Shown piece after piece: positions 180 through 27,812 of a DNA stretch of 64,000 nucleotides. The stretch covers positions 38,277 to 102,276 of the IMG/VR virus record IMGVR_UViG_3300027986_000008; one strand, written 5' to 3'. Made by a program: the position numbers and the translations under genes. This stretch comes from a virus (taxonomy: Duplodnaviria; Caudoviricetes). Below the pieces are notes generated by a model. The model ran no database searches. It saw nothing but the letters and a program-made list of their open reading frames with translations, and had not been told where the DNA came from. Every line of letters begins with the position of its first letter. Position 1 is the stretch's first letter.

Positions 180-692
180 ATGCCTAGTTGGTCTCTGTCT
201 GATCTCGCTCTCGATCCGGATCTCGGCGAGGCACTAACGATAGTCCGCTCAACCGGCTCCTTCGCGGCCGGAGGCTTTCAGAGCAGCACGGTATCTCTCG
301 ATTGGTGGGGGATACTGGCCGTCGCGGAAGATGAGATTCTCCGCCAGTTCTCTGAGGGAGATCGGATCACCGGGGACCTAATTCTTTTCTCAGCAGATCC
401 TCTCTATGAGACCTCTGAGCAGAGATCCGGATTAAGCGACCAAGTTGCGTGGAACCAGGGTCTCTATCGCATCGTCAAGGTCGGACCGTGGAAGGATTGG
501 GGATTTTATGCCGCAGTGCTGACGAGGATCGGAGATTACACCCCTCCTCTTCCGACGTTCGACGAGCAGCCAGGCACGTTCGACTTCCAGCAAGGAACGT
601 TCGACGAGGCCGGAATGCCGTCGTATGACGAGCATGCTGGCTACCATGATCAGGCGGAGGGAACTTTCGATGAGGCTCAAGATGAAAATTAA
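180..692 (+). CDS. head-closure/head-tail joining protein with C-terminal acidic GTFDE repeats
   Basis: Position in the neck module; EGDR...SDQVAW...YRIVKVGPWxDWGFY pattern; C-terminal TFDEQPGTFD...GTFDE repeats. Confidence 0.6.
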   Translation: MPSWSLSDLALDPDLGEALTIVRSTGSFAAGGFQSSTVSLDWWGILAVAEDEILRQFSEGDRITGDLILFSADPLYETSEQRSGLSDQVAWNQGLYRIVKVGPWKDWGFYAAVLTRIGDYTPPLPTFDEQPGTFDFQQGTFDEAGMPSYDEHAGYHDQAEGTFDEAQDEN

Positions 693-3600
693 GATCGCCC
701 TAATTTCATTAGCGTCTGCTATAGCAGCAACCGCTCAGATCCAAGTCATTCCCGACACGACGTTTCCGACCGTCCGGTCCCTCCTCAACTCGAACTTCGG
801 ATACATCAGCAATCAGTTAGGGCTGAAGCAGGGCCTGATCTCCGGCGCTCCGTCCGTCTGGCCGAATATCTACTATCAGACGGTAAAGGTCAACGGGAGC
901 ATCCAACCTCAGCAGCCGACGATCAACTTCGTTCCAGGAACGAACATCGCCTTCAGTTGCACGAACAATATCGGACTGAGCCAGAGTGACTGCACGATCA
1001 GTTCCACGGCCGGAGGAAACGTCACCAGCATCGGCATCGCGGTTCCGGGATGGCTCTCCGTGTCCGGATCTCCGGTTACTAGTGCGGGGACGATCACGAT
1101 CTCCGAGGCTTCGGCCCAATCTCCGCATCAGGTTATCGGTACGTGCGGAGCGAATACGTCCTTCGGACCGTGCGCGCTTGCGATCTCCGATCTTCCGGCC
1201 GGACTCCTCCAGTCGGGAAATAATCTCTCCGAACTTTCGAGCGCGTCTGCCGCGAGGACGAATCTCGGTCTGACGTCTACGGCCACCGCCTCTCTCGTCA
1301 CTACGGTAGGAAACCCTGGAAGCAACCTGAACGTTCCGACCGAGGCCGCTGTGAGAGCAGCCGTCGGTGCGGCGGGATTCGTAACGAGCGTCGGATTGGC
1401 TGCTCCGACGTGGTTGACGGTGTCCGGCTCTCCGGTCACGGCCTCCGGCACTCTAACCTTTGCTGCCGCGTCCGGACAGACATCTCACCAAGTAATCGGC
1501 ACGTGCGGATCAGCGACGTCCTTCGCGCCCTGCTCTCTCGTTCTCGCGGACCTTCCAGCCATCACTACGGCGAACGTCTCCGAGAGCGGTAACCTCTACT
1601 TCACGAATGCGCGAGCCATCGCAGCCTTTTCCGCTACTGCTCCGATCCTCCTCAACTCCGGAGTGATCTCCTGCCAGACTGCCTCCGGTCTTCAGGCCGG
1701 TTGCCTCACGTCTACGGATTGGTCAACCTTTAACTCTAAGCAGACGGCTATCTCCGGCGCTCCGGGAACGTGGCCGACGACGTTCGCTCCTCCGGCTCCG
1801 ACTCCGTCTACCTTGGGAGGATTGTTCTCTGCGACCGCGGCCTCCCATCGGTGGGTAACGAACATCGACAATACCGGAACGCAGCAACTCTCTCAGCCGT
1901 CTTGCGCAGACCTCAGCAACTCCTCTGCGAGTTGCTCGACCGATGCGACGAATGCCGATAACATCGCCAGCGGCACCATCGGAGCCGCTCGGCTCCCTCA
2001 ATTCACCGGAGGAGATGCCACGACGGCCGGAGTAGGATCTACTGCTCTTAGCGTAATTAAGGTGAACGGAGCCGCGGTTCCGGCCTCCGCTGCAGCTCTT
2101 GCGTCGAACGTGTCGAGCCAATTAGTCGCGGCCGCTACGACAGGCTCCGGCAGCACGGTCGTTCTCTCGACGTCTCCGACTATAACCAATCTAAAAGCGA
2201 CGGCTATCCAGGATGCGAACGGCAATCCTTTCTTCACGTCCAGTGCGACCGCTTCGGCTGTAGATTCCGTAACGGTAACGAACGCAGCGACAGCGAATCC
2301 GGCAACGGTAAGCGTCGGCAGCAGCGGAAGCGACGGGAACATAAACCTGAATCTAACCTCGAAGGGAACCGGAGTCATTCAACTGAACGGCTCTCCGGTG
2401 GTCGCGTCTGCAACTACGGATGCCACGAATGCGAGCAACATAAGCAGTGGTACTCTTCCGAACGCGAGGCTCTCAGCGGTTCCGAATTCTGCTCTGGCCA
2501 ACTCATCTACTACGCTCAACGGTCAGACTGTGGCTCTCGGAGCGACCGGAAACGTGAATGCCGGGGCAGCAGCTCACTCGGTATCGATCAACCAAGGTGC
2601 CGGATCTGCCATCTCTGGCGTGGCTATCGGAACAGCCGGACGAGTCCTTATAGACCAAGGAGTCGGAGCTGATCCTGCCTTCGACGCGGTATCGGGAGAC
2701 GGAGCACTAAACGGCTCCGGCTCTTTGACGGTGACGAAGACTAACGGAGTCGCCTTCGCGACCTCGGCGACTACCGACGCGACGAACGCGACGAACATAA
2801 CGAGCGGTACTCTGCCGACCGCTCGACTGGTATCGGTCCCTAACACCTCTCTCGCTAATTCGGCCACGACGGTGAATGGGCAGACTTGCACGTTAGGGTC
2901 ATCCTGCACGGTGACTCTCTCCGCGGTGAACCCTCAATCGGCTACGTACCAAGTTCTTGCCGCGGACTTCTCGAACTACAAGACGATCGTCGTCTCATCC
3001 GGGACGTTCACCATCACCTTAGTGGCATCCGGATCGCAACCTCCGGCGGGTCAATACGTCACCATCATTAACTACGGTTCTGGTCTGGTGACGATCGCGA
3101 GGAGCGGCCAGAATATCAACGGCGGGACTTCCTCTCTGACTCTTAATGCGGCCTCGGCAACGTCGCCGACGTCGTCGTACGTCATATCGGACGGCACGAA
3201 CTATTTTGCTTCTATGAACTCCGCGGCATCTAGCCGCACGACGAACCTCTACTACGCGCCTGGTGCGAAGACGGTGAACGGCGTCGGAGCCTCCGTCTTT
3301 CAATGCAACACGAGCTGCCCCACGCCGACAGCAATTACGGGAGGAACCGATGTAACGGCATCCCTCCACTTCGCTGGAGCAGGAAGCGTATTCGACGAGT
3401 TCGTGATTCCCACGAACTACGCAAACCAAACGATCACGATCGAAGTGATGGCTCGAAGCGCCGATAACGGAGCGCATAGTGGAACGGTCACGTTCACGAG
3501 TAGCCAGATCGGAGCGAACGGAGACGTATCTAATCCGACGCTCGCGAATTCGACGGCGATCACCTTTACTCCTTCAGGGACGGCCAGCGGCTTAGTGATC

Positions 3601-3726
3601 GCAACGGGAACGTTTACGCCGAGTTGGACGGCGGGCAATCGCGCCTTTTGGAAAGCAGCAGTCGCCCTCGGCACTCTCACGTCTGATCTTGAAATCGTAT
3701 CGGTTCGTTTCTATGCGACGTTTTAG
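682..3726 (+). CDS. large Ser/Thr/Ala/Gly-rich fibre/adhesin-like protein with signal peptide (fibre 1)
   Basis: ATG 682 after GAGG; MKIKIALISLASAIAATA-Q; repeated VTSxGxxxPxWLxVSGSPVTxxGT and TDATNAxNIxSGTL fibre motifs; SDGTNY module; Cys pairs. Confidence 0.7.
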   Translation: MKIKIALISLASAIAATAQIQVIPDTTFPTVRSLLNSNFGYISNQLGLKQGLISGAPSVWPNIYYQTVKVNGSIQPQQPTINFVPGTNIAFSCTNNIGLSQSDCTISSTAGGNVTSIGIAVPGWLSVSGSPVTSAGTITISEASAQSPHQVIGTCGANTSFGPCALAISDLPAGLLQSGNNLSELSSASAARTNLGLTSTATASLVTTVGNPGSNLNVPTEAAVRAAVGAAGFVTSVGLAAPTWLTVSGSPVTASGTLTFAAASGQTSHQVIGTCGSATSFAPCSLVLADLPAITTANVSESGNLYFTNARAIAAFSATAPILLNSGVISCQTASGLQAGCLTSTDWSTFNSKQTAISGAPGTWPTTFAPPAPTPSTLGGLFSATAASHRWVTNIDNTGTQQLSQPSCADLSNSSASCSTDATNADNIASGTIGAARLPQFTGGDATTAGVGSTALSVIKVNGAAVPASAAALASNVSSQLVAAATTGSGSTVVLSTSPTITNLKATAIQDANGNPFFTSSATASAVDSVTVTNAATANPATVSVGSSGSDGNINLNLTSKGTGVIQLNGSPVVASATTDATNASNISSGTLPNARLSAVPNSALANSSTTLNGQTVALGATGNVNAGAAAHSVSINQGAGSAISGVAIGTAGRVLIDQGVGADPAFDAVSGDGALNGSGSLTVTKTNGVAFATSATTDATNATNITSGTLPTARLVSVPNTSLANSATTVNGQTCTLGSSCTVTLSAVNPQSATYQVLAADFSNYKTIVVSSGTFTITLVASGSQPPAGQYVTIINYGSGLVTIARSGQNINGGTSSLTLNAASATSPTSSYVISDGTNYFASMNSAASSRTTNLYYAPGAKTVNGVGASVFQCNTSCPTPTAITGGTDVTASLHFAGAGSVFDEFVIPTNYANQTITIEVMARSADNGAHSGTVTFTSSQIGANGDVSNPTLANSTAITFTPSGTASGLVIATGTFTPSWTAGNRAFWKAAVALGTLTSDLEIVSVRFYATF

Positions 3727-6505
3727 CCTGTGGTTCTTCATCGCCTGCGCGTGCTCCCTCGCGGCTGGCAACACCTGCACGCTGAAGGACGGCGGCGGTG
3801 GGTCCTGCACCGGGTCCAATCCAACAGTCTGCTCGTTGGCCTCTATCGCCGCAGATAGCACGCACAGTTACTGGACGGGGACCGGGTGCACGGCGAATGG
3901 CTACACGCCATCCAGCGATTATCTGGTAGTGCCCGAACCTTTCGTGCTCAAGTTCGATCAGGCAGCAGGGAGCACGGCTGGTAACTCGACCGCGCCCATT
4001 TATCCGTATGTCGTTTCGCTGAACGTCACGAACGGCGGGACGCTTTGCGGCAGCGCAACGGCGGCCATGACAATCGGCAGCGCGTCTGCCATCGCGAATG
4101 GCTCCATCACGTCGTTTCCGCACATCACATTGGTCATCTCCGGCGGCGTAGTGCAGTCGGCTTACATGGAGGCGAGCGGCGGCGCGGGACGGCCTCGATT
4201 CGCGCCCGGCAGCGCGGCCCCGACCGTCACAGTCAGCGGCTGCACTGGCACGACGGCGGTAATCTCTCCCAACTTGGTGACCGGCAGCGGGACGGCAGCG
4301 ATCGAGATCTCCGGTGCGGCAGGCGGCACGGCGTACGGCGGAATCCAGGTGACCACCAGTTTGACAATCAAAGGAGACGTCAGCATCGGCAACACTTCGG
4401 GCGGGGCGAGTACGAGCACGCCGATTGTGCAGAAGCGCGGCTCGACGATCACGTTCGACTCCTCGGCCAGCGCGGACGGATTCTCTGGGCACTACATTTA
4501 CGGCCTCGTGCCGATCTCCGGGTATAACGGATTCGGCGGCGGGAAGTGGAAGTACGACAGCAGCGATTGCACCTCTGCTCAGCAATGCACCCTGACGGCG
4601 AACGCGGCGGGAGCAAATACATACTTCGATTATTCGAGAGTCGCGGATTGGGTAGTCAACGCCACGTATACCAATTTCTCATACGTCGGGAGCTACCTGG
4701 ATTTCTTGCTCAACGACGGTCGCGAAGACTGGACGGTGACGCACTCGACGTTCAGCCACCACGGATTGACGCTCATCGGTGTTGCAGCGACCAACAACAT
4801 CGTACATCAGTACAACAGTTATTCGAGTCCGGCATCCTTCGGAGATCTGGCCGTCAATGATTCCTCGATCGCGTATGTGAGCGGTACGCGCAACGTTTCG
4901 TATAACGTCTTTAACTTATGCGTCAACGCGACCCAAGCGAACTCTGGGAATCTAACGCCGTCTCTCGCAGGCTGTAATTCCACTGGTCAGGTATCGCCTG
5001 CTAATTTCACTTGGACCGGGAACTACTTCCCAACCGTGCCTACGGGACTCGGGACGAATTCTACCGCCACAAATAACTTCTTCATCTTTCCGCTTAGTTG
5101 GGGATCTGTGTCTGGAGCCGGAGCGCGCAGCGCGAACTACTTCTGGTATCCGGCCATCGCGTTTAATCCTCACCTGACGGCTCTCGGCAACGGGCAAAAC
5201 AGCACTGGAGATATCTTCGATATTACAGAGGACGGAACCGGAGGAGGGGACGCCTCTCCGGTCCTTGGTCCGCAGTCGGGATCAGGAACGAATAATCTTT
5301 ACAACGAAATCATTCTTCCGTCTAAGCAGGGTCACGGTAATGGGTGGGCCTCGTTGATCTATGACGGATCGTATCCGAGCGGCAACACACTAAACATGAA
5401 TCATGCCACGTTCTGGGGGCGGAGCTATACCGCTGGAAACGGCCAGAATTCGGTGCTCGCGAACGGTCACAACTCGAACTGCGGCGGAGTCGGCACGGTA
5501 GGTTCATTCAAAGCGAACCTCGTCTACGGTCTAGGAGGATCGAATACGACTTTTAAGTTCGCGACGATCCTTCCGGCAGCTACGGCTTGTTTGGACCTCT
5601 GCACGGCTTCGACGTGCGACTACAATGCGGCCTACAACTTCACGCTGACGGCGACGTGCGTATCGTGCAACCCAGCCGGAGGAGGGAGAGGATACCTCAG
5701 CAACACGACGAGCGGAGTCCTTCCAGGACCTCACGATCTCGATGTCGTTTTGAATCCCGGTTCTGCGGTAGGCGTCAATCCGAGTTTCGCAGACAGCAAT
5801 CGTAATGCTTATCTATGGGATACGAAATACCTCGGCCACGCTCTGAATGCGGCATGGGTGACGAGCACTTCCTATACTGCCGGAAGCTCTGCCGTGTCGG
5901 ATTCTCACGCCGGAGTCTACGGCAATGCGGGAATCAATTACAGTTGCATCCTCAGCCATACGTCCAACGCGCAGACGGAGCCGGAAGCCGCGCCACTGGA
6001 GACGAGCGATATCGGCTCTGGGTTGACGAGCATCGTGGTATCCGGGGGGATCGCAACCGTCACGACTGCGGCAGCTCATCAGCTCGCCGTTGGATCAGAG
6101 GCGGTCATCGTCGTATCGTCTGCTCCGGCCGCTTTCGGAGCTTCTGTTCTGAGCGTACCGTCAAGTACCACGTTCACGGCTAACGTAAGTTGTTGCCTTG
6201 CGGATGCGACCTATACGACCGCGAGCAAGCTTTACCTCTGGCAAGCATTTTGGGAGCCTGCGTCGCTGGTCTCTCTTCGAAGTGCCATCGCGGCCGGGAC
6301 TCTATATACAGACGTCTCTCTCGGGGACTCTTCTACTCACCTCGCCGTTGATGCTTTAGTGAAGTGGGTCTCGGCGGGATTAGCTCCTCAGAATCCGGCG
6401 TTTTACTACACATTTCCAGGGGATACGAATTCCGTCACGAACGTTGGAGCAGTTCAGATGCTCGATCGCACGAAAGTCGGCGGGATCGCTCCGATGATCC
6501 AGTAA
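3713..6505 (+). CDS. exported beta-rich (beta-helix-like) partner protein with CBM-like module
   Basis: MRRFSLWFFIACACSLAA signal peptide; Asn/Thr-rich beta repeats; AWVTSTSY...YSCILSHTS resembles CBM5/12-like modules; many Cys. Confidence 0.55.
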   Translation: MRRFSLWFFIACACSLAAGNTCTLKDGGGGSCTGSNPTVCSLASIAADSTHSYWTGTGCTANGYTPSSDYLVVPEPFVLKFDQAAGSTAGNSTAPIYPYVVSLNVTNGGTLCGSATAAMTIGSASAIANGSITSFPHITLVISGGVVQSAYMEASGGAGRPRFAPGSAAPTVTVSGCTGTTAVISPNLVTGSGTAAIEISGAAGGTAYGGIQVTTSLTIKGDVSIGNTSGGASTSTPIVQKRGSTITFDSSASADGFSGHYIYGLVPISGYNGFGGGKWKYDSSDCTSAQQCTLTANAAGANTYFDYSRVADWVVNATYTNFSYVGSYLDFLLNDGREDWTVTHSTFSHHGLTLIGVAATNNIVHQYNSYSSPASFGDLAVNDSSIAYVSGTRNVSYNVFNLCVNATQANSGNLTPSLAGCNSTGQVSPANFTWTGNYFPTVPTGLGTNSTATNNFFIFPLSWGSVSGAGARSANYFWYPAIAFNPHLTALGNGQNSTGDIFDITEDGTGGGDASPVLGPQSGSGTNNLYNEIILPSKQGHGNGWASLIYDGSYPSGNTLNMNHATFWGRSYTAGNGQNSVLANGHNSNCGGVGTVGSFKANLVYGLGGSNTTFKFATILPAATACLDLCTASTCDYNAAYNFTLTATCVSCNPAGGGRGYLSNTTSGVLPGPHDLDVVLNPGSAVGVNPSFADSNRNAYLWDTKYLGHALNAAWVTSTSYTAGSSAVSDSHAGVYGNAGINYSCILSHTSNAQTEPEAAPLETSDIGSGLTSIVVSGGIATVTTAAAHQLAVGSEAVIVVSSAPAAFGASVLSVPSSTTFTANVSCCLADATYTTASKLYLWQAFWEPASLVSLRSAIAAGTLYTDVSLGDSSTHLAVDALVKWVSAGLAPQNPAFYYTFPGDTNSVTNVGAVQMLDRTKVGGIAPMIQ

Positions 6506-6518: not shown

Positions 6519-7448
6519 ATGTCTAGCGTCACGTGGCCGAACGGCCAAACATTCGCCTCTTCGGCGCTATCTCCGGACGGATTCAACGTCTTGATGCAGC
6601 CGCTCGTCGCTTCGATCCTTGGAATCGACCCGGTAGCAAATCCGAACGCGGCGTATAAGACCGTCCGCGTGGCCTGGCAGACGCAGGGTCAGCCGGAGTG
6701 GGCCGTAGACGAGGACGTCTGCGTCGTGCGTTCGACTCTGAAAGATACCGGCTTCTCTCGCACTCACGACAACATCCGCGGACAGAACGACTCGACCTCT
6801 CTTGCTGATGTTTCTTCATTCACTCAAGTATGGAACTTTCGCTGCGTGCTTTACGGGCCGAACTCGGCAGATAAGGCGCGCTTGATCCTGTCAGCGATAC
6901 GAGAGGATTGGGCAGCTCAGTGGATCGTATCTCCAATTACGGATTGCTCTGTAGTCGCTCCCGGCATCAATTATCAGGTGGGAGACGTCGTCGGAGTCGT
7001 TCAGCCCGGAGCCTTCGGAGGTTCTCTTAAGGTGACCTCTTTAGGTCTCAACGGAGCCGTTGCCGGACTCGCGTTGGTTCCGGCCCAGCAAGGATATGGC
7101 TATCAAACGACGGGAACTATCGCGGCGATCTTCGACGAGACTCTCGGAACGTTCGATGAGCACTCAGGAAACTTCGATGAAGCTACCCAAGCTCTCTCAA
7201 CGACTGGCGGCTCCGGAACCGGTCTGACGGTGAACATAGTGGCAAGCAACGTGTTTTTGGTTCCCGGTCCGCGCAGGCCGACGTACTCCGGAGAACCTTT
7301 CAAGAGTTTGTGGTTTAAGCGGGCTGACATCGAGATCGAGTTCAACGAACTCGTGATCGAATCGCTCATCAATCCGTCGGCAGCAGGATTAGACATCGTT
7401 CTCCTCAAGGATACCGGACTCTCGACGACGCTCGTCCTGAGGCCGTAA
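6519..7448 (+). CDS. tail terminator/completion protein with inserted domain
   Basis: Directly upstream of the sheath; VRVAWQTQGQP, YGPNS, WFKRADIEIEFNE; internal GxxYxVGD insertion. Confidence 0.65.
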   Translation: MSSVTWPNGQTFASSALSPDGFNVLMQPLVASILGIDPVANPNAAYKTVRVAWQTQGQPEWAVDEDVCVVRSTLKDTGFSRTHDNIRGQNDSTSLADVSSFTQVWNFRCVLYGPNSADKARLILSAIREDWAAQWIVSPITDCSVVAPGINYQVGDVVGVVQPGAFGGSLKVTSLGLNGAVAGLALVPAQQGYGYQTTGTIAAIFDETLGTFDEHSGNFDEATQALSTTGGSGTGLTVNIVASNVFLVPGPRRPTYSGEPFKSLWFKRADIEIEFNELVIESLINPSAAGLDIVLLKDTGLSTTLVLRP

Positions 7449-7467
7449 AGAAAGGAAGCACCATCAA

Positions 7468-8895
7468 ATGTCGTTACCTCTTCCACTCTCTAACATATTG
7501 AGCGTCGCCACGTTCGTATCGCCTGCTGCGGCTCCCACGCCGAGCTTTAACCAGGCCTTGATCGTCGGAGACAGCACCGTTATTCCATCGGTCGGAGCGA
7601 ACTCGCGGACGAGGCTCTATCAATCGCTCTCTGCGATCGCATCCGACGGATTCTCCACGTCGAGCGCGGAGTATCTCGCCGCTGAGCAGTACTTCGGCCA
7701 GACTCCGCAGCCGCTCAACCTGTGGCTCGGACGTAGGGATCAGACGGCGATCAATACTGCGATCATTCACACCGGCGCAGCCGGGACCGGATACGCAGTC
7801 GGGGACGTCGTGACGGTGGTTCAGGGAGGAGCTTCCGGAGGCCAACTCCAAATCACCACCGTCAGCTCCGGAGTCGTCACCGGATTCCAGATCATATCGA
7901 CGGCGCGCGGCACCGGCTATTCCGTGGCATCGGCGTTGAGCACGACCGGAGGGACCGGGACCGGTCTGGAGGTCGACATCACCGTCATCGGAGAGACGCC
8001 TCTGATGGCGGTTCAGGCGTGCCGCCTCACGAATCCTCAGTGGTACTGCTGCGAGTTCGTCGGCACCGCGGTTGATTCGGACCACATCTCTATAGCCGGT
8101 GCGATCGAGGCATTTACTCCCGCATCCACCTATTTCATTACGAGCGGAGAGACTGCGGTCCTCAATGCGGCCGCCAACAACCTCTTCGCTTCTCTTCAAG
8201 CCCTCAAGTACCGGCGCACCTTCTCCGTGTATTCGACCACGCAGGGCGGCAACTTCCCGAACAATGCGTACTCAGCTGCCGCGGTCATGGGGGTCGCGAT
8301 GGGGAGGAATACCGGCGCTCCCGGCTCGTACTTCGATATCATGTTCAAGCCGATTGCCGGAGTGGCTCCCGAGCCTCTGACCGAATCTCAGGTCAACGCG
8401 ATCTGCGGAACGATCGACCGGACGAGCGTCGGACTCTGCGGAAACCTGATCACCCTTTACCAGGGGAACTATACATGGACGCAGCTGGCGGTGATGGCGA
8501 GCGGAGACTTCTTCGACGAGGTGCTGAACCTCGACATGCTCGCCGCAGACATCCAGAACAGCGGCGTCGCTCTCTTGACGTCTGTTCCGGCTCTCCCGAT
8601 CACAGAGGGCGGGATGACCTCGATGAAGGCCACGGTCGCCGGAGCCTGCGACCGCGCCCAGCTTCGCGGATTCATCGCTCCGTCCGGAGTCTGGCTCGGA
8701 GTCACGATCGGAGCCGGAAACGGAGCCATCGTTAACGGACAGGCACTCCCCCACGGTTACGAGATGTACTCTCAGCCGGTGAGCCAGATGTCTCAGACTC
8801 AACGGGCGTCGAGGGTGCTACCTCAATTGACGGTGGTCCTCGTCGAAGCCCAGTCCGGCCACATGCTGAGCGTGACGGTCCAGGTGCAGAAGTAA
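7468..8895 (+). CDS. contractile tail sheath (DUF3383-like)
   Basis: 475 aa; EYLAAEQYFGQTPQP, MFKPIAGVAPEPL, MASGDFFDEV, RGFIAPSGVW motifs; followed by the tube gene. Confidence 0.85.
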   Translation: MSLPLPLSNILSVATFVSPAAAPTPSFNQALIVGDSTVIPSVGANSRTRLYQSLSAIASDGFSTSSAEYLAAEQYFGQTPQPLNLWLGRRDQTAINTAIIHTGAAGTGYAVGDVVTVVQGGASGGQLQITTVSSGVVTGFQIISTARGTGYSVASALSTTGGTGTGLEVDITVIGETPLMAVQACRLTNPQWYCCEFVGTAVDSDHISIAGAIEAFTPASTYFITSGETAVLNAAANNLFASLQALKYRRTFSVYSTTQGGNFPNNAYSAAAVMGVAMGRNTGAPGSYFDIMFKPIAGVAPEPLTESQVNAICGTIDRTSVGLCGNLITLYQGNYTWTQLAVMASGDFFDEVLNLDMLAADIQNSGVALLTSVPALPITEGGMTSMKATVAGACDRAQLRGFIAPSGVWLGVTIGAGNGAIVNGQALPHGYEMYSQPVSQMSQTQRASRVLPQLTVVLVEAQSGHMLSVTVQVQK

Positions 8896-8930
8896 ACGCT
8901 AAAATCCATTCGCGAAGGAGACTGATTTAA

Positions 8931-9392
8931 ATGTCCACAAACATCTTAGGAACTTACAGCGCGAAGGACATGACCTTCACGTTCACGCATCCTCTCATCG
9001 GAATCATCGAGGGAGGAGGCATCCAGGAGAAGGGTATCGACGAGATCGTGGTCCGCTTGCTGACCGACAGGACCACGATGAAGATCGCCGCAGACGGCGG
9101 AGTCGTTCCGAGCGCGGTACCCGGAAATAATGGAGAAGTTGACCTCAAGTTCTTCCAGACGTCTACCCTCCAGAGCGACTTCATCGCCTGGTTCAACGCG
9201 ATGATCGCAGCGGCCGATGCCGGAGACGTCTCGACGTGGGCTGCGGGAACTCTCCTCATTAAGAACACCGTCGATGGTTCCGGCCACTACTGCCGTGGAG
9301 TAGCTCCGAAGAAGCCTGCGGACAAGAGCTATCAGGCCGAGGCACAAGCCTTGACCTGGACTATGGCGTGCGCCGATATCACGAATTTATAA
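8931..9392 (+). CDS. tail tube protein (DUF3277-like)
   Basis: 153 aa after the sheath; TYS...IAADG...QTS...KPADKSY...LTW pattern. Confidence 0.8.
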   Translation: MSTNILGTYSAKDMTFTFTHPLIGIIEGGGIQEKGIDEIVVRLLTDRTTMKIAADGGVVPSAVPGNNGEVDLKFFQTSTLQSDFIAWFNAMIAAADAGDVSTWAAGTLLIKNTVDGSGHYCRGVAPKKPADKSYQAEAQALTWTMACADITNL

Positions 9393-9445
9393 AAAGCATT
9401 CCCACGTCCGAAATAAAAAGGAGCGGACGCTAAACACTCACCACA

Positions 9446-9838
9446 ATGTCAGAGAAATCGAAAGACGTCACGATCGGCGAGCGGAGATTTCGGATAGACC
9501 TAGTTCCTGCCGACGTCGGCAATTGGATCGTGCTCCAGATCGGCAGCGGAAAGATCATCCAGGAGGACGTATTCGCGAAGATCCAGAGCCATCTCCTGAG
9601 CCGTTGCTCGATCTATCATGATGACGAGACGCCGGTCCGGATCTATCAAGACGGTAAATGGACTGACCCCAAGCTCGGTCTCCAGTATGACCTCATCACC
9701 GTCAACGACCTGATGACAGAGGCCATGGCTTTTAACTTCGACCCTTTTTTCGCCGAGATGCAGCGCCGCAATCCGGCAGCCTTCAAAGGCGGCGAAGCAG
9801 CCTCGGCTACACTCCAGTTAACTTCCCAGACCACCTGA
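9446..9838 (+). CDS. tail assembly chaperone (gpG-like)
   Basis: Between tube and tape measure; NFDPFF motif overlaps a slippery site. Confidence 0.8.
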   Translation: MSEKSKDVTIGERRFRIDLVPADVGNWIVLQIGSGKIIQEDVFAKIQSHLLSRCSIYHDDETPVRIYQDGKWTDPKLGLQYDLITVNDLMTEAMAFNFDPFFAEMQRRNPAAFKGGEAASATLQLTSQTT

Positions 9839-9993
9839 GTCCATACCTCTGGAGGCCGGTCGTGGCTGGCCTCTGGAGGCAAAGCGAACTCAGCCTCTAC
9901 TCCATCCACGATCTCTATGATGTAAACCTCGTCATAGACGTGCTCGAAGAGAACCGCTGGCGCGCAGCGGATGCCGCAAGGCAGAAGAAATAA
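9742..9993 (+). CDS. -1 frameshift extension of tail chaperone (gpGT-like)
   Basis: Heptamer C CCT TTT at 9742-9748 in the correct frame; the -1 frame is open to TAA 9991-9993 and encodes YLWRPVVAGLWRQSEL..YSIHDL. Confidence 0.8.
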   Translation, partial: PFFRRDAAPQSGSLQRRRSSLGYTPVNFPDHLSPYLWRPVVAGLWRQSELSLYSIHDLYDVNLVIDVLEENRWRAADAARQKK

Positions 9994-9996
9994 TAA

Positions 9997-12120: not shown

Positions 12121-12132
12121 GACAAAATCCCG

Positions 12133-13265: not shown

Positions 13266-13268
13266 CCC

Positions 13269-17008: not shown

Positions 17009-17034
17009 ACGCTTAATCTGGAGAAACGATCATC

Positions 17035-17442: not shown

Positions 17443-17457
17443 TACCCTTAAGATCCC

Positions 17458-18450: not shown

Positions 18451-18955
18451 AAATATCGCGTGGCTCGCTGCGAACCTCCAGCCATTGGACGACATCCTAA
18501 ATTGCCTGCTCCAATTTCCGGCTGCGTTCGACATCAATACAGCTATCGGAGTTCAACTCGACACGATAGGTGTGATCGTCGGACAGTCACGCACGGTGGG
18601 ATTCCAGCCGAGCGGATCGGTCAGTCCGACTCTCGATGATCCTACGTACCGTCTACTTCTCCGAGCAAGGATTTATCAGAATCACTGGACCGGTAAGATG
18701 GACGCCCTCCTCAACATCTGGAGGAATCTATTCCCAGGAGGAACGCTCATCGTCAACGATCACCAGGACATGACGGTTGCGATCTTCGTTGCCGGATCAT
18801 TCAGCTCGATCATTCAGGACCTAATTCTGAATGGCTATATCATTCCTCGTCCTCAGGGAGTCCTCTACACGATAACGATGGCAACGCTTCCGATGCTCGG
18901 ATTCGATCGCAACGATGCCTACGTTGCCGGTTGGGACACCGGAAAGTACATCTAG
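18437..18955 (+). CDS. DUF2612-like baseplate wedge protein (N-terminus lies in the upstream frame)
   Basis: FDINTAIGVQLDTIG.IVG.SR, LDDPTYR.LLRARI..NHW.G, DHQDMT, PRPQGV. Confidence 0.8.
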   Translation: MPAPKNIAWLAANLQPLDDILNCLLQFPAAFDINTAIGVQLDTIGVIVGQSRTVGFQPSGSVSPTLDDPTYRLLLRARIYQNHWTGKMDALLNIWRNLFPGGTLIVNDHQDMTVAIFVAGSFSSIIQDLILNGYIIPRPQGVLYTITMATLPMLGFDRNDAYVAGWDTGKYI

Positions 18956-18956
18956 T

Positions 18957-19868
18957 ATGTCATCTAATTTTTTGCAGTGGAATCCGACGGCGGCGAATCA
19001 GGAGAGCGACTCGACGTACAACGCAGACGCGCTAAGAACCGGAGGGGCGACGACCGGAGCGATCCTGCCGTCTAATCTCGACAACAAGTTCCGCTTCCAG
19101 ACCTCCACATTCGTCGCCGCTCTCGCTCAGGCTCTGGCGAACAAGGGCTATAACCTGTCCGACGCCGTCTTCTCGACACTCGTCACCGTCCTCTCAAACA
19201 TAAAGACGTCGGCTGATTTTCCGGCCTCTCAGATTCTCGTTCCCTATGCCACGTCGATGGTGTTCGACGCAGCCCAGTCGTTTCAGTTCGTCGTAGCGCT
19301 TACCGGGAACGTGTCCGCCGCGTCTCTAATAAATATAGCCGTCGGGCAGCAGTTGCTCTTCATCTGGGAGCAGGATGGCGTCGGCTCCAGAACGTTTCCC
19401 ACGATGACGGCATCTGGATATACCTGGGTCGGCCAGGGAGCTATCTGCCCGATCGCGAGCAGCGTCAGCCTCCAATTCTTTGACGTCGTCTCAGGAACCG
19501 GCCTCGAAGGTCCGCTGATCATTCCGATAACACCTATGATGTGGCTTTCCGGAGGCGGCATCATCACGCTCACCGATACGTCCGTCATATCGACGAGCGT
19601 TAGCGGAACGGTCGCGTCTGGGTTCCGAGAGATCACGGAGAAGGTAGATGCGAGCGGCGGTACCGTCACAAGGACGTTCTTTTCGGCGAATCCATCGCGC
19701 ACTGGCGTGAAGATCAATATAAAGAAGATGGACTCATCGCAAAATGCCGTGGTGCCGACAGCGGCAGGCGGACAGTTCATCGACGGAGCGTTCGCAAACT
19801 TCCCGATCTCCGTCCAGTACAATTCTCTCACGTTCCAATGCGACGGTTCCGGCTGGATTCTGATTTGA
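18957..19868 (+). CDS. tail fibre (baseplate-anchored, no signal peptide)
   Basis: NFLQWNP..N...Y.A..LRTGG..G...S...NK...Q...VAALAQ anchor domain; KKMDSSQN..V, DGSGW. Confidence 0.75.
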   Translation: MSSNFLQWNPTAANQESDSTYNADALRTGGATTGAILPSNLDNKFRFQTSTFVAALAQALANKGYNLSDAVFSTLVTVLSNIKTSADFPASQILVPYATSMVFDAAQSFQFVVALTGNVSAASLINIAVGQQLLFIWEQDGVGSRTFPTMTASGYTWVGQGAICPIASSVSLQFFDVVSGTGLEGPLIIPITPMMWLSGGGIITLTDTSVISTSVSGTVASGFREITEKVDASGGTVTRTFFSANPSRTGVKINIKKMDSSQNAVVPTAAGGQFIDGAFANFPISVQYNSLTFQCDGSGWILI

Positions 19869-19878: not shown

Positions 19879-20616
19879 ATGAGCTTCATAACCGGCAAGA
19901 CTCCGAAGCAACAAATTTTCGCCACGAGTGGCACGTTCATTCCCTCGACGGCTCTCCTGATCAATTCTCAGGGTTGGATAGAGGTAACGGTCGTAGGAGG
20001 AGGAGGAGGAGGAGGAGGAGCGAGCGGCTCGTTTCCCGGAGGAGGAGGCGGCGGTGGACAGTACTCTCGCAAGAAGGTCCAGATAGCCGGAAATATCACC
20101 GTCACGATCGGTGCCGGAGGAGCCGGAGGAACTGGAGGGGGATCTACACCGACTGCAACTCAGGGAACTCAGGGCGGCACGAGTTCGTTCGGAGCCTTCG
20201 TCTCGTCCACCGGAGGTTTTCCGGGAAGCGCTGCCACCAATAGTCCGTCAGTCCTCAACGGTGCTGGCGGAAACTGCGGAGACGGAAGCGGCGGGCTGAT
20301 CTGCCCCGGAGCTTCAGGAGGAGCGGTTTCCGGTGGTGGAGGAGGAGCCGGAGGAGCCGCCTCAACTCCCATCGGTAACGTCGGATCTGCGGGAGGTCCT
20401 GGAATAGCCGGAGTCGCTGGAGGAGGAGGCGGAGGAGCCGGAGCAGCCCCCGGTCCTGGAAGCTCGGGAGGCGGCGGCGGAGGTGCTAACAGCCTCTCGG
20501 GCGGAACCAACGCCAATCCTAATAGCGGTTCCGGCGGAGGAGGAGCCGGAGGGCCAGGGACCGCGAACGGAGGAAGCGGAGGAAGCGGCGTGGTTATCAT
20601 CGATTGGTGGGAGTGA
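19879..20616 (+). CDS. glycine-rich tail fibre-associated protein
   Basis: F.TSGTF.P..V.VVGGGGGG ... GGSGGSGVVII.W. Confidence 0.75.
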   Translation: MSFITGKTPKQQIFATSGTFIPSTALLINSQGWIEVTVVGGGGGGGGASGSFPGGGGGGGQYSRKKVQIAGNITVTIGAGGAGGTGGGSTPTATQGTQGGTSSFGAFVSSTGGFPGSAATNSPSVLNGAGGNCGDGSGGLICPGASGGAVSGGGGGAGGAASTPIGNVGSAGGPGIAGVAGGGGGGAGAAPGPGSSGGGGGGANSLSGGTNANPNSGSGGGGAGGPGTANGGSGGSGVVIIDWWE

Positions 20617-20817: not shown

Positions 20818-23664
20818 ATGAAACGCTCTTTAGGGTTATGGGTTCTATTTGCGCTTTCGTTGCCTCTGTTCTCTCAGCCGATTCAGCAACAGGTATTCCA
20901 GGAGACAGACGCCCCGAAGCTCTCTCCTTCTCAGGGCTTCTCAATTTGCTGGTTCGACAACGCTGATCACCAATTCGAGTGCATAAATTGGGCAGGGACC
21001 GTCGTTAAGCTCGGTTCTGGGTATTCTTACGTGGGAACCTTTGCGGAGCGTCCTACGAGTCCCGCAACCAACTCTACGGCGCTGTTTACGGACGCAACCG
21101 TCACTGGAGCTTGTCCTCCGACCGGCGGAGGGTCGAATTTCTCGATCTGTGCATGGAGCGGATCGGCTTGGGTTCAGGTGGCTTCCGGATCTTCGTCGGG
21201 ATCAGCGAACGTAACGGCTACTTGCAACGGAACGACGACGTCATGTGCTGTTACGATCTCGTCTCTTAACTTGACGGTGTTTGATCCTGCTCTAGCTCAG
21301 TGCCATACCGGATCGGCCTTCGTTCCGCTTACAGGGTACTCTACTACTGGATCGTCTCCTATAACGAGCGTTGCGTTAACCTACAGCAGCACGGTGGGCC
21401 CGGTAATCTGCGCCGTCAACAGTAGCGGCGCGACAGGTCCTGCTGGTGCCGCTGGTGCCACTGGAGCGGCCGGACCGACAGGAGCAACGGGCGCTACCGG
21501 CGCGACTGGCCCAGCTGGTCCTACCGGAGCAACGGGAGTCGCCGGTCCTACGGGCGCAACAGGCTCAGCGGGCACGGCTGGACCTACCGGCGCAACTGGC
21601 GCGACCGGACCTGCTGGAGCCACAGGACCAGCAGGACCAACCGGAGCGACGGGAGCTACCGGAGCAACTGGCGCGACTGGGCCTGCGGGGTCAAGCGCAT
21701 TTAGTGCTCTGACGAGTTCTACGAACACGACGGCCGCAATGGTTGTTGGCTCCGGAGCCTCACTGGCCACTTCCGGAACAGGATCAATCACGGCAAGCGC
21801 TGCCGTCACAAGTATTCCTCTGACCACTCCTAAGATCACTACCGGTATCACGGACGCGAACGGGAATGTGTTCGTGGCGACATCTTCTACCGCGTCGGCG
21901 GTTGATTCAATCACCGTCACGAATGCAGCGACGGCGAACCCGGCGACGGTGGCAGTGAGCGCAACGGGGTCGGATTCGAACATTAACCTAAACATTGTTT
22001 CCAAGGGAAGCGGTGTGGTGGAGTTGAATGGAACGGCAGTCGGAACTGCGTCCACACAAAATACCGGCACGAGCGGCGCGACGCTCCCATTTCTCAATGG
22101 CGCGAATACCTGGAGCGGTAGAAACACTTATGGCGGCGGTAATCTATTCGCTGCCGGAGTGAACGCGCAGACTGGAACAACCTATACGATTGTGACTACG
22201 GACGAATTCAAGCTCGTCACGTATAGCAATGCTCTGGCAATTGCCGTCACGCTTCCGGTTGCGACCACGGCTGGATTCGGAGCCGGGGCCTTATTCCCGC
22301 AGAAGAACATCGGAGTCGGTACCGTCACGATCACGCCGACTACCAGCACGATCAACGGGAACGCGACGTTGGTTTTGACAACTAACCAGGACGCGACGAT
22401 CTACTCAGATGGGACGAACTATTTCGCGACGGTGGATACCGGAACCGGAAATACAGTGACGGGCGGAACCTGCACCAATCAATTAGCCTCGGCTATCGCG
22501 GCGGTGACGGGAGTGCCTACCTGCTCGACGGTCGTATCAACGATGACTGATTCGTCCATTGCCCATACCGGTGTGGACGTGAACACCTCCTATCAAGTGA
22601 CGGCAACACATTTGGCGGCGGCGCTCCCGATTAACCAAGGCGGTACGGCTACGACTACAGGCGTGGCGGGTGCGATACCGAATTCTTCTACGACTTCGGC
22701 TGCGACCTGGACGGCAACACCAACCCTCGGTGCTTCTGGCACTCTTGGCTCCGTCACGATGGGGAACGCAACGAGCGGACTACTGACTCTGGAGCCTGCA
22801 ACCGGGGCGCTTGGGACCGTTACGGTATCTATTCCAGCCGCTACCGACACGCTGGTCAATCTCGCTGGTACTCAAACTCTCAGCAATAAGACTTTCGTGG
22901 CTCCGGCACTCGGGACTCCCGCAAGCGGCGTAGCAACCAACCTAACTGGGACCGCAAGTGGGTTGACGGCGGGAACCGCAACTAACGTCGCGGGAGGAGC
23001 AGCAGGCGAGATCCATTACCAGACTGGATCAGGAACCACGGGATTCTCTGCGGCGGGGACGGCAAACCAGATCGCACTTTCTGGAGGAACGGGAGCACCA
23101 ACGTTCATCGACTTTCCGGAGCGCTTCTATATACCGGCCGCAAACTGCAACAACACCACGGCAGGTGCAGGATGGTCCATCGGGTCGGGCGGTACAGTCA
23201 CATGCCGCGCCGGAACCAACAATCTTGGCGGGTACATCACAATCACCGATACCTCTTCCACGTTCGCTCAATTTACCCTTACTCTTCCGGAGGATTGGGA
23301 CACAGCCACGCGTCCCTATATTCGGTTCTTCTTTTCGTCCGCGACCGACACGACGAACGGGCACACAGTCATTCCGCAGATCAAGGTATCGTGTCCGACC
23401 GCGGCAGACGGAAGCGTCTCGGACGATGCCACGTTCTCAGCGGCGCAGTCCTCCAGCACGGTGACTTTCGGAGCAAGTGCAGTTGCAAATGGGTTCTATA
23501 ACGGATCTAACGTCCAGATTGGCTCGACGCAAATGACGGGCTGCATTGCGGGCGGTCTGATGATCGTTCAAGTTGGCCGTGCCACGGATACGGCGACCGG
23601 AAACATCAACTTCTACGGCGCTGCCGTGACATTACCACGGTTGCTGGCGGTACAGGCAAACTAA
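20818..23664 (+). CDS. collagen-repeat fibre protein with signal peptide (fibre 2)
   Basis: [20 protein letters not shown]; G-X-Y run; [10 protein letters not shown]...SDGTNY module; [14 protein letters not shown]. Confidence 0.75.
21427..21690 (+). repeat. collagen-like (Gly-X-Y)n coding repeat
   Basis: GAT/GPA/GPT triplets. Confidence 0.9.
21664..21900 (+). repeat. dispersed repeat, copy 1 (copy 2 at about 25499-25735)
   Basis: Near-identical DNA (gggcctgcggggtcaagcgcatttagtgctctgacgagttc...gacgcgaacgggaatgt). Confidence 0.9.
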
Positions 23665-23666: not shown

Positions 23667-25214
23667 ATGAAGCTGAAACTTTTAGCCATTTTGCTCACCG
23701 GGACTTCGTTCGCGTCCGCCACTCCCAGCTGGAGTGCTTATCAAATGCTGCGGGAGTTGCTATCCCCGTTCTTTCCGCAGTGGGTGCCGACTATTCCAGC
23801 TACGTCATCCGCCGCAGCTGGCACATGGACTATCGTTCAAGGCCCAAAGTATTGCACTGTATCTAGCGGTGCAAATAGTTGCACTATCACTCTGGCAAGC
23901 GCCTTGGTCGCGGGAAATTTATACGCCTTGGTTGGTTACGCCAACAACGGAGGATCAGGCGAATCTAAAATATCAAGTCTGTCACCATCGGTCGGAACAC
24001 TTGTAACCGAGGTCGGCTGTACTGGATTCATCCCTGGTGGCGTAAACTTCATGCCGTTGTGCGCTTATGTGCTGCCGTCTGCATCTACAGGTATGGCTGG
24101 AACTTCTCTTACTGTCAACCTGGATAATAACACGGGAGGAGTGGCCACCGAAATATCAATCTGGGAAGTCCACCCAAGCGCCAATGGAGCAAATGTGGCT
24201 CTCGACAATTCAGGCGCTATTGCTTATACGTCCTCTACTACGTCGCAAACCGGCCCATCATTCACGGTATCTGGCACCAACGACGTTTCATTTGTCGGCT
24301 GGGGTCCTGGGACCGCGTACGTCCATATAAGCTCTGTTAGCGCTCCATATAACACCCTCGAACACTTTGAGTCGTCAAATAGCTACTGGGGATCATCGGC
24401 GTCTATATCCACGTCAACTCCTACTTGGACTCCAGTCTCAAGCGTAAATGGGCTACCAGTATCATTTTCCTTCGGCTGGAATCCCACCGCTGGCAAAGAG
24501 GAACAGTTCAATGATTTTGAAGGGGGCACGAGCGGATCAACTGTTACTGCATCGGCAATAACCACATCAGCGCGTGGGTGGCAGGGTTGCACCTACACGC
24601 TAACGGGGACAATAACGTGGAACACGTCGGCCAGTCTTCCTTTGCTAAACACTTCACCTAGGCTATATGGCAATGGCCTCACTTATGCTTCGGGAGCAGG
24701 GACGCTTGGCGTAGTGCAAACCGGGTCTGGCGCATCAACCGCTAACCACATAGATTGCAGCGTTACGTATAGCAACCTACAAAAAGTAAGTGATAGCGTT
24801 AACTTTCAGTCAAGCCTTGCCGTCAATGATTCAACGAGCGTAGATATCTTCTACATCAAAGGTTCGGCAGCAGCGGTAAATTTTATGTTCAAGGGAAATG
24901 GCGCTAACAGGTACGTACAACTTGAATGTAACGATACATCTACGGTCTCCAGTGGTACGGTAACGATTGCTCCAAACACCGAGTATACGCTAGAGATTCT
25001 CTTTGATTCCGCTGGCGGGACTCACAGGGGTCGTGTCTATAGCGCATCTCAGTCTTTGGTCGGAAGTGAGATGACTTGTTCCGCATTATCCAGTAACCGT
25101 TTTGCGGGATGGTCAATTGGAAACACCGGAGCACAAGTCGTTACGAATGGCGCAACTAATTTGTTTGATAGTTTGCAGGTTGATCTTTCTGGAACGTGGC
25201 CGATAATCCAATGA
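23667..25214 (+). CDS. exported two-domain beta protein (partner of fibre 2), atypical composition
   Basis: MKLKLLAILLTGTSFASA signal peptide; lectin/ConA-like C-terminal half; visibly AT-richer codons. Confidence 0.6.
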   Translation: MKLKLLAILLTGTSFASATPSWSAYQMLRELLSPFFPQWVPTIPATSSAAAGTWTIVQGPKYCTVSSGANSCTITLASALVAGNLYALVGYANNGGSGESKISSLSPSVGTLVTEVGCTGFIPGGVNFMPLCAYVLPSASTGMAGTSLTVNLDNNTGGVATEISIWEVHPSANGANVALDNSGAIAYTSSTTSQTGPSFTVSGTNDVSFVGWGPGTAYVHISSVSAPYNTLEHFESSNSYWGSSASISTSTPTWTPVSSVNGLPVSFSFGWNPTAGKEEQFNDFEGGTSGSTVTASAITTSARGWQGCTYTLTGTITWNTSASLPLLNTSPRLYGNGLTYASGAGTLGVVQTGSGASTANHIDCSVTYSNLQKVSDSVNFQSSLAVNDSTSVDIFYIKGSAAAVNFMFKGNGANRYVQLECNDTSTVSSGTVTIAPNTEYTLEILFDSAGGTHRGRVYSASQSLVGSEMTCSALSSNRFAGWSIGNTGAQVVTNGATNLFDSLQVDLSGTWPIIQ

Positions 25215-25234: not shown

Positions 25235-26925
25235 ATGACCACGCGATATAGCCTCATCGCCGTGCTGTTGTGCGCTGGCGCTCTCCACGCGCAGCCTACG
25301 ACGGTTGAGGTGAAGGATACTGTCTATCGCGCCGTGGATACGAACAGCGGAACCGGAACACATGCCGATTGGAATATCAACCTCGCAGGTAACGTAGGAG
25401 CAACCGGAGCGACAGGAGCGACAGGGCCTTCCGGACCCACAGGACCCGCCGGTCCTACTGGAGCAACGGGCGTTGCTGGACCAACCGGCGCAACCGGCGC
25501 AACTGGCGCGACCGGGCCTGCGGGGTCAAGCGCATTTAGTGCTCTGACGAGTTCCACGAACACGACGGCCGCAATGGTTGTTGGCTCCGGAGCCTCACTG
25601 GCCACCTCCGGAACAGGATCAATCACGGCAAGCGCTGCCGTCACAAGTATTCCTCTGACCACTCCTAAGATCACTACCGGTATCACGGACGCGAACGGGA
25701 ATGTCTTCGTGGCAACGTCTTCTACGGCATCGGCGGTCGACTCGATAACGGTCACGAACGCGGCCACTGCGAATCCCGCCACGGTAACGGTCGCGGCATC
25801 CGGGAGCGATTCCAACATCAACCTCGCGTTGGCCGGTAAAGGAACGGGAGGCGTCCAGGCTCCCTCGCTGACCACCACCGGCTCGACCGCCGGCACCATC
25901 TCGATGACCAACAATGTCACACCGGGAACGGTCGTCGCGAACTCCTGGGGATTCACAGCACCAACCACGATCACGACAAGCTGGTACGGCGAAGCCCCTA
26001 ATGCCAGCCCGGCTGCGAACCAGATCATGCTTTTTCCGGCCCCGACCTCCAACGTGAGCCAGTGGGCATGGACTACATTCGCTAGCACCAATCTCACCGA
26101 CACGGCCAGTCTGCTCTACACCAACCTGAACCGGACGCTGGCAGCAGTGCTGACCATTCCCGGTGGCGATCTATTCAACGGTGGCATCGACGCACAAACC
26201 GGCACCTCCTACACGATGGTCACCGCAGATGAAAACAAACTCCTGACGTTCAACAACGGCAGTGCGGTAGCCGTAACGCTTCCACAGGCAACTACGGCGG
26301 GATTCACGTCAGGTGCATTCTTTACGGTGTTCAATCGAGGGACTGGAGCGGTCACGATCACCCCCACAACCTCGACCATCAATGGCGGATCGACTGCGGT
26401 ACTGAATCAAAACCAGGGCGCGCCTTCATTGTCAGTGACGGCACCAACTATTCGGCCTGGATCAGCGCCGCCCCCTCGGGATCGGGTACGGTAACCAGCG
26501 TCGCCACGACGAGTCCGATCGGGGGCGGGACGATCACTAGCACGGGAACGATTACCTGTACCACCTGCGTGGTTGCAAGCTCTCCCGGCGCGGGTATCGC
26601 TCACTTCGCAGGCTCGACTCAGACCGTTACGAGTTCAACCATCGCCACGGCGGATATTGCTGCCAACGCCGTCACCTCCGCAAAAGAAGCGGTCGTCAAC
26701 ACGCGCCGGGTCTGCGATATGGCAGTCGGCGACGCATCCGGATCAGCGCTTACGAACGGCCAACTTGGTCCTCAGAAGCGCATGTGTTACATCCCAGCGG
26801 CCTCGACCATCGTTGAGATGGATGTGGCGGCGGACGGCGGAACCCCAAACGTGATCGTCGGCAATAATGCGGCGGATATCCCGGGGGGTGGCCGCACAAT
26901 TTCCTGTTTGACGCCGGAGGATTGA
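25235..26925 (+). pseudogene. frameshifted paralogue of fibre 2 (fibre 3) with signal peptide
   Basis: [20 protein letters not shown]; removing an extra GC at about 26419 (GGCGCGCC) restores [13 protein letters not shown] and joins to ORF 26569-26925. Confidence 0.75.
25499..25735 (+). repeat. dispersed repeat, copy 2
   Basis: Matches 21664-21900 with a few synonymous changes. Confidence 0.9.
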
Positions 26926-27812
26926 GCAATGGCGCAGTCCCCACCAGCGCCACGCTCGAAAGTAGTTCACATTGTTCCGTTAGTGGGCCCGCGCAGTTTC
27001 AGCCGACTTATGTTGCGGGATCGGGCGGGGATGTAATGGAGGGAGCCAATTCCCCCACCATCGTGTTTCCCGCGAATGCGACGGCCTGTAATTCCGGATA
27101 TTCCGGTAATACTGGCCTGACGCTTCGCCATCATGTGGCAAGCACGGTTACGACGCCAACAGCGTTTGTCAATCTCAATTTCCAGACCACTTATGCGTCT
27201 GGTGTCTCATTCGGAATGTATTGGCAGAAGAACGCTGGGGGAGTTCCGCACCAGGGATTCGACGCCCTGCGCTTTCAGGGAGGAAACGGCGGCGGAACAA
27301 ATACTGGACCGGCATTCACGCAATGTTGGGATAACGTGCGTGGAGTTTGCCAAGCTACCGGCGGCACGACTTACAACGAGTTGTGCATGGAGGTTACCCC
27401 TCTCAGCGGGCCAGCCTCCAACGCGGGATGCTTCGATTACACTGATGGAGTCTGGTACTGGTTCACTGTGGACTGGACTACGACCGGAGCGGACGCCTGC
27501 TTCTATAACGTCGATCAGACTACGGGAGCGCTTGGTAGCCAAGTGATCGCGCATCTACCGAATGGCACGACTTCATCTTGCGTTAACTCCACCGCGCAGG
27601 CACCATTTGGGCCAGGGGGCTTCGCAACGCTGGTTTTAGGCGCAGTAGGGGCCGCACCTCCCACCGTCACCGCCGATACGTATTACAGTAATGTTTTGAT
27701 GGATTGGATTGATAGTGAGTTCCCACTATTGCCGCCATCATCCGCTACTACTACTGGCCCAATGACCGTATCTGGATCTGTCATAGCAGGCGGAAATGTG
27801 ACGATCAAGTAA
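26868..27812 (+). pseudogene. 5'-truncated partner protein of fibre 3
   Basis: Frame open from 26868 without a good start or signal peptide; FLFDAGGLSNGAVPTSATLESS resembles FNDFEGGTSGSTVTASAITTS of 23667-25214. Confidence 0.55.

Follow-up and report, generated by a model that had tools for sequence, protein, structure and literature searches.

Five large genes in and beside the contractile tail module of a tailed phage encode fibre- and tailspike-like proteins that begin with Sec-type signal peptides, and the sequences suggest that these proteins probably fold outside the cytoplasm, the compartment in which the virus particle is built. The genes lie in the window, the 64,000-nucleotide stretch analysed here, which covers bases 38277-102276 of the 102,276-bp virus record IMGVR_UViG_3300027986_000008 (a single record); positions refer to the window unless given as genome positions. 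Folding in the cytoplasm is the accepted view for the proteins by which tailed phages recognise their hosts. A first-pass annotation, made from the letters alone, had placed Sec-type leaders on genes starting at 682, 3713, 20818, 23667 and 25235 and had proposed that the products are exported, folded oxidatively and then either added to virions at lysis or displayed by a lysogen. All five genes are present as long plus-strand open reading frames (ORFs), referred to below as fibres 1, 2 and 3 (682, 20818 and 25235), the beta-helix protein (3713) and the ConA-like protein (23667). The reading that we tentatively place first is that they are accessory exported proteins, which would bind or cut the polysaccharide envelope of the host late in infection.

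Each of the five genes starts with a basic n-region, which is followed by 9-12 hydrophobic residues and a small-x-small site. Leaders were called with our own heuristic (basic n-region, hydrophobic h-region, small residues at -3/-1) and by inspection. The heuristic flags the genes at 682, 3713, 20818 and 25235, with a background of about 3 spurious calls among the other ~118 ORFs, and the 23667 leader was accepted by eye and from orthologues; heuristic, inspection and orthologues agree with the leaders first proposed. Gln occupies the predicted +1 position in three of the five (682, 20818 and 25235), also as first proposed, and in five of the seven leader-bearing genes of the whole genome, the two additional ones being a fibre-like gene (genome 30252-31634) and a small minus-strand gene (58217-58636).

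Conservation in homologues had been put forward as a check on the leaders, and it bears them out: every orthologue has a leader, which varies in sequence, and the conserved part sets in at the predicted cut. All four orthologues of the ConA-like protein (38-47% identity) carry leaders of differing sequence, with conservation starting after them. The beta-helix protein has one close orthologue, P0070 (51% identity), from a prophage-like region of a chromosome of 8.67 Mb; the two leaders differ, and the proteins are alike from the predicted cut onward. In the beta-helix family at large (full HMMER scan, 136 relatives), leaders are found in 44 of the 76 long members, and the signal-less members begin exactly at the mature N-terminus of the leader-bearing ones. 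Fibre 1 shares with its relatives only modules of 60-100 residues; its search returned 63 proteins, the window's own included, 42 of which have leaders (followed by Gln in ~30). Relatives on viral contigs have leaders in at least 13 of 14 evaluable cases and mostly occur within runs of 2-5 leader-bearing genes. A lipoprotein reading of the 3713 product, with its Cys in the leader, was abandoned, since similarity to the orthologue begins only at the signal peptidase I (SPI)-type site. No PEP-CTERM or other C-terminal sorting signal was seen in the C-termini of the proteins. The C-terminus of fibre 1 (3685-3726) is an alternating hydrophobic strand with a terminal Phe, as in the C-terminal signal of outer-membrane barrels, and may be merely the last strand of a jelly roll.

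There would be no export if the hydrophobic N-termini had arisen by chance, stayed uncleaved or lain upstream of the true starts, an explanation that the many signal-less members of the beta-helix family might favour. We consider it very unlikely. The next in-frame starts are at codon 127 of fibre 1 and codon 42 of the beta-helix gene, the latter inside the region conserved with P0070, so the true starts of these two genes cannot lie downstream of the leaders. Moreover, leaders are present in all orthologues, and Cys content follows the leader, as described next. One start does need correction: position 670, with GGAGGG 9 nt upstream, is the most likely start of fibre 1 in place of 682, and the leader is still included.

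The close Cys pairs first noticed in these proteins (CGANTSFGPC, CTLGSSC and CQTASGLQAGC) are present, and a 60-residue module with a Cys pair is repeated in fibre 1. Among the relatives of fibre 1, the Cys content is 1.66% in leader-bearing and 0.38% in signal-less proteins (Mann-Whitney p = 8e-8), and 35 of 40 leader-bearing relatives have an even number of Cys. One shared module holds a Cys pair in leader-bearing proteins and Ser and Tyr at those positions in signal-less, S74-type phage fibres. In the beta-helix family, the Cys content does not differ by leader (1.82% versus 1.68%). The case for oxidative folding is thus strong for the fibres, whereas the beta-helix protein may or may not fold in this way. 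Members of the DsbA and glutaminyl cyclase families were not found in the phage. Collectively, because the leaders are conserved, conservation starts at the cut, and Cys tracks the leader in the fibre family, the first-pass proposal of export and oxidative folding is well supported, except that the link to Cys fails in the beta-helix family.

The fibre modules recognised at the outset are borne out by family matches. Collagen repeats (PF01391) in fibres 2 and 3 score 47.3 and 32.4 bits, above the Pfam cut-off of 27.2, and there are matches to PHROG tail-fibre families. Pfam, PHROGs and NCBIfam gave nothing beyond collagen repeats for 682, 3713, 23667 and 26922, and a sequence search of solved structures gave no match for 3713 or 23667. 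The AlphaFold2 model of the 3713 product is a right-handed parallel beta-helix (predicted local distance difference test, pLDDT, 81.6; predicted template modelling score 0.88). Structural comparison with VIA-align gave Z scores of 12-16 over 250-430 residues to PL6 lyase, HK620 tailspike and Pel9A. The best match, a PL6 alginate lyase, has Z 16.3 at a root-mean-square deviation of 16.3; the HK620 tailspike (Z 15.2), rhamnogalacturonan lyase and Pel9A come next, and the exported bacterial enzymes VexL, RbmB and AlgG and the tailspike-like WceF (Z 9.5) lie lower, at Z 9.5-12. A Foldseek comparison of the beta-helix model with the PDB gave no match at E <= 0.001. The CBM5/12-like module is a weak match, seen in 8 of 44 members of the beta-helix family and in the viral fold library. 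In the ConA-like protein, the last 235 residues (281-515) match PL7/PL14/PL18 lyases and lectin domains at Z 11-13.7, in a model with an overall pLDDT of 47.7, and a chromosomal ConA-like partner (L013) passes Pfam Laminin_G_3. The look-alikes in the atlas all score <0.9 and are leads only.

According to the first-pass annotation, the genes form three cassettes, each of a fibre-like gene and a beta-rich partner. The layout of fibre and partner stands, and the description of the partners needs revision: the third (26922) has no leader, and, given the beta-helix with its CBM5/12-like module in one and the putative ConA-like C-terminus in another, the partners are glycan-type proteins, with predicted folds of the glycan-binding or glycan-cleaving kind, rather than plain beta-rich chaperones. 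The complex predicted for the C-terminal domain of fibre 2 and the ConA-like protein scored 0.00, which speaks neither for nor against an interaction. By sequence comparison, fibres and ConA-like proteins are paired elsewhere too. The gene just ahead of the 23667 orthologue in L029 encodes the C-terminal domain of fibre 2 (39% identity). A Bryobacteraceae metagenome-assembled genome (MAG) has a 910-residue leader-bearing fibre with this domain and, as the next gene, a Laminin_G_3 protein that also bears a leader; both sit among housekeeping genes (PolX, NadD-like, MGMT and CMD-family). The same domain is common to the genome 30252 gene and to proteins of L029 and L013, and the Cys-containing N-terminal domain of fibre 2 is also present in L001 and L004. 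Another relative adjoins exosortase EpsH/EpsI and sugar-nucleotide genes; PHROG scans of the neighbours in L027, L029, L037 and L043 were nearly blank.

The tail module that surrounds the genes (6519-19868) is contractile, as first described, and of the E217/PB1/Pam3 type. It comprises the terminator-like protein, a DUF3383 sheath, a KPP10_Orf10 tube, the tape measure, a Dit-like protein, a Pam3 gp18 plug, a gp41-like hub, baseplate J, DUF2612 and a short signal-less fibre, the conventional fibre that had been noted at 18957 and that is called the stub below. The nearest isolated phages are distant (sheath identity <=35%), and a search of genome contigs gave no relative of the sheath protein. 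That the first cassette interrupts the neck genes also holds: it sits between the head-tail gene and the terminator gene, and these two adjoin in sister phages. Gene junctions overlap or abut (692/682, 3726/3713 and 23664/23667). Comparison with homologues indicates that the reading frame of fibre 3 passes into that of the 26569 ORF near 26420, and an independent contig from the same soil run has the same letters across this site; the frameshift (26400-26440) may mark a copy in decay or be programmed. Two glycine-rich proteins (Pfam Gly_rich_2; 17458-18450 and 19879-20616) stand on either side of DUF2612 and the stub. All features are listed in the table.

Table. Leader-bearing genes and neighbouring features (window positions unless marked genome)
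Feature	Position	Strand	Remarks
Head-tail (neck) protein	180..692	+	phrog_939, E 9e-10; homologues in L001, L002, L004, L006
Leader-bearing mosaic fibre 1	670..3726	+	1018 residues from 670 (most likely start; 1014 from 682); 14 Cys
Leader-bearing right-handed parallel beta-helix protein	3713..6505	+	CBM5/12-like module at ~residues 713-760; C-terminal domain; orthologue P0070
Tail terminator-like protein	6519..7448	+	PF23961, E 1.6e-5, 25.1 bits, under the Pfam cut-off of 27
Canonical signal-less short fibre (stub)	18957..19868	+	First ~100 residues (anchor) 55-58% identical in sister phages L006/L024, L023, L025, L033
Leader-bearing collagen-like mosaic fibre 2	20818..23664	+	PF01391, 47.3 bits
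Leader-bearing protein with C-terminal ConA-like jelly roll	23667..25214	+	Jelly roll at ~residues 281-515 (predicted); four orthologues, all with leaders
Leader-bearing collagen-like fibre 3, frameshifted near 26420	25235..26925	+	Frames of ORFs 25235-26494 and 26569-26925
ORF of 296 residues without leader	26922..27812	+	8 Cys; no family match; last gene of the plus-strand structural block
Small leader-bearing protein, outside the set of five	58217-58636	-	139 residues; Gln at +1
Leader-bearing fibre-like gene	genome 30252-31634		460 residues; head module, just before the window

Among sister phages, the number of leader-bearing genes ranges from 0 to 5 or more, and their insertion site varies. 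Two stand between terminator and sheath in L004/L005; L001 has a single collagen-like one, with the Cys-containing N-terminal domain of fibre 2, directly after baseplate J; and L023 has one at the end of the tail module. L024 has none, and L024 and L025 have the stub alone. In L033, a signal-less fibre of only 185 residues is followed by four or five giant leader-bearing genes. The leader-bearing proteins lack the conserved N-terminal baseplate anchor of the stub, and P0007 has a leader directly before a module that, in the signal-less fibre, comes after the anchor. At 830-1579 of L033, between the baseplate J and DUF2612 genes, a GIY-YIG-like ORF was recognised by eye.

The absence of the anchor, the variable number and site, and the same cassettes beside bacterial housekeeping genes support the preferred reading of a free, exported set. 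In this model, modules of phage fibres and tailspikes would make up accessory proteins, namely three mosaic fibres (two of them collagen-like, one of these frameshifted), the beta-helix protein with its CBM5/12-like module and the ConA-like protein. They would be co-transcribed with the late structural genes, exported through the Sec machinery of the host and cut by SPI, often exposing Gln; disulfides would stabilize them in the periplasm, and they would not be incorporated into the particle in the cytoplasm. Their role would be to bind, and in part to cleave, exopolysaccharide or further glycans of the host envelope, acting from the periplasm and, once the cell has lysed, in the matrix around it. 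Progeny might in this way be freed and kept off debris, as by receptor-destroying or receptor-masking agents. The analysis directly shows the leaders and that they are conserved, the association of Cys with leaders, the folds, how the genes are arranged and how they are distributed; export as such, disulfide formation, action on glycans and a part in egress are inferred from these. Several points weigh against this model. In a diderm, Sec export goes no further than the periplasm, and exopolysaccharide lies beyond it. Cleavage by the beta-helix and ConA-like proteins is a guess from fold, and the beta-helix family does not share the link between Cys and leader. In addition, the genes sit in stoichiometric late operons, as structural genes do, and the collagen-like gene after baseplate J in L001 and the short stub of L033 fit a split virion fibre at least equally.

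In such a split fibre, the signal-less stub would be built in the cytoplasm, while the leader-bearing fibres would fold and oxidise in the periplasm and dock at lysis, when inner membrane and wall are breached. The genes lie within the late structural operon and are translationally coupled, their modules are the same as in true tail fibres, and disulfides together with a blocked N-terminus would help particles to persist for long in soil. No docking domain is recognisable in the leader-bearing proteins, however, and the sister phages L024 and L025 have the stub alone. Moreover, P0007 has its leader at the position of the stub's anchor, which looks as if the anchor had been replaced and not as if a docking partner had been added; the cassettes also occur in chromosomes without nearby phage genes, and we know of no precedent among tailed phages. 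We regard docking after lysis as possible and rather doubtful. Similar doubt attaches to the general proposal that soil Acidobacteriota phages mature long receptor-binding fibres through Sec export, a cut before Gln, periplasmic disulfides and lysis-time docking on a stub.

Exported receptor-binding modules could also act without cleaving anything, by occupying the receptor on the infected cell and on debris (receptor masking or superinfection exclusion). The T5 lipoprotein Llp is a precedent for the principle, the exported modules are of the receptor-binding type, and late expression would fit protection of the progeny. Five large proteins would, however, be a costly route to this end, and the exclusion proteins known so far are small and made either early or by lysogens. 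We consider this role improbable.

Display by a lysogen, as adhesins or decoys, was the second fate offered in the first-pass annotation. Relatives do occur in bacterial chromosomes and prophage-like regions, and the proteins resemble exported fibre adhesins such as the mosaic adhesive trimer (MAT) proteins of Bdellovibrio (PMC10769870). The phage itself, however, is apparently non-integrating: neither a tyrosine integrase nor a serine recombinase was found in the record, which CheckV rates as 100% complete. The ends of the record repeat over ~93 bp (genome 1-93 versus 102184-102276), as in a circular assembly, and the collection classes it as linear. Starts of the leader-bearing genes overlap or abut the ends of late structural genes. 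Promoter-like sites are no more frequent than in shuffled sequence (5 found, 5.6 expected), and terminator-like sites are fewer (4 found, 11.9 expected). The genes thus show neither the promoter and terminator of their own nor the temperate carrier that characterise morons. Because of the missing recombinases, the junctions with late genes and the lack of a promoter-like signal above chance, lysogenic conversion appears highly unlikely. On the evidence for and against a role in the virion, we therefore rank the free exported set first and docking after lysis second, followed by receptor masking, with lysogen display and lack of export together at the bottom.

Because all 13 genome matches of the first fibre are Acidobacteriota MAGs (Bryobacteraceae, Solibacteraceae and Korobacteraceae) and the phage genes use Shine-Dalgarno sites, the host is most likely a Bryobacterales member of the Acidobacteriota. 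The stretch is absent from RNA runs, its sole holder being the soil metagenome that is its probable source. The minus strand at genome 17513-17690, ~20.6 kb before the window, has two tRNA genes of the suppressor type (anticodons CUA and UUA). Despite these tRNAs, the structural genes end in TAA (18), TGA (10) and TAG (6), and the standard code reads the ORFs well.

The closest parallels fall into several groups. The MAT fibres of Bdellovibrio bacteriovorus are cellular, phage-fibre-like chimeras, all with signal peptides (PMC10769870). The window's fibres share with them the signal peptide at the start and the mosaic build of phage-tail-fibre-like chimeras with swapped modules and tips. The S74 chaperone domain occurs in some relatives of the window's fibre and was not found in the window's proteins. 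MAT proteins differ in being cellular genes of a predator with a conserved ~130-residue domain after the leader, whereas the genes described here belong to a late structural operon of a phage. Virion fibres and tailspike depolymerases (HK620, P22, CBA120 and Klebsiella phage) have in common with the set fibre modules, collagen repeats, the right-handed beta-helix and probable ConA-like end domains, and their genes, too, lie in the tail module. These virion proteins, however, fold in the cytoplasm without a signal peptide and bind the particle through an N-terminal domain, in place of which the window's proteins have a leader; the latter also hold more paired Cys.

Among bacterial proteins, the beta-helix fold is shared with WceF, VexL, RbmB and AlgG, the lower structural matches of the 3713 product. 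WceF of Pantoea is an exported tailspike-like glycanase with a twin-arginine translocation (Tat) signal (PMC7949094); the titles of the PDB entries describe VexL and AlgG as periplasmic and RbmB as a polysaccharide lyase. All four differ in being host genes in polysaccharide loci, and the leader of WceF is of the Tat type. The collagen-like adhesins Scl1/Scl2, Lcl and BclA likewise combine a signal peptide, a collagen triple helix and a globular end domain. The window's proteins, however, have no LPXTG or other anchor, and only their repeats match these adhesins, far below the family cut-offs. Literature searches, made in an incomplete library, turned up no description of fibre or tailspike genes with leaders within a tail module.

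Porphyromonas phages have genes whose SPI-type leaders precede a Gln; these genes obey the Bacteroidetes Q-rule and were read as an adaptation to host secretion (PMC10367356; PMC5837995). Those phages differ in being temperate phages of Bacteroidota, and the genes have no assigned function and no tail parts are named, whereas here the probable host is an acidobacterium and the proteins are fibre- and tailspike-like. Hence, the Gln at +1 agrees with the Q-rule, and the host falls outside the group for which the rule was drawn. Unrelated neighbouring proteins in the Acidobacteriota MAG and viral loci (L007-L022, L026 and L032-L049) also include many with leaders and then Gln. In the MAG loci (L007-L022 and L026), where a count was made, the strongly polar residue that comes first behind the hydrophobic stretch is Gln in 12 of 35 leader-like ORFs, with ~17% expected; the viral loci were read by eye only. 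A further candidate leader stands on a 181-residue ORF in the replication region (35056-35601), which opens with a motif resembling the twin-arginine signal, followed by hydrophobic residues and a Cys, possibly a Tat or lipoprotein leader.

If this widespread class of fibre- and tailspike-like proteins is indeed exported, it would represent either a secreted, glycan-acting toolkit deployed late in infection or a virion that matures partly in the periplasm; assembly by docking at lysis is a route not described for tailed phages. The Gln-after-leader pattern hints that the Q-rule extends beyond the Bacteroidota. Either outcome would bear on how soil phages handle polysaccharide-rich hosts, on what a "tail fibre" annotation means in viromes and on the production of stable depolymerases.

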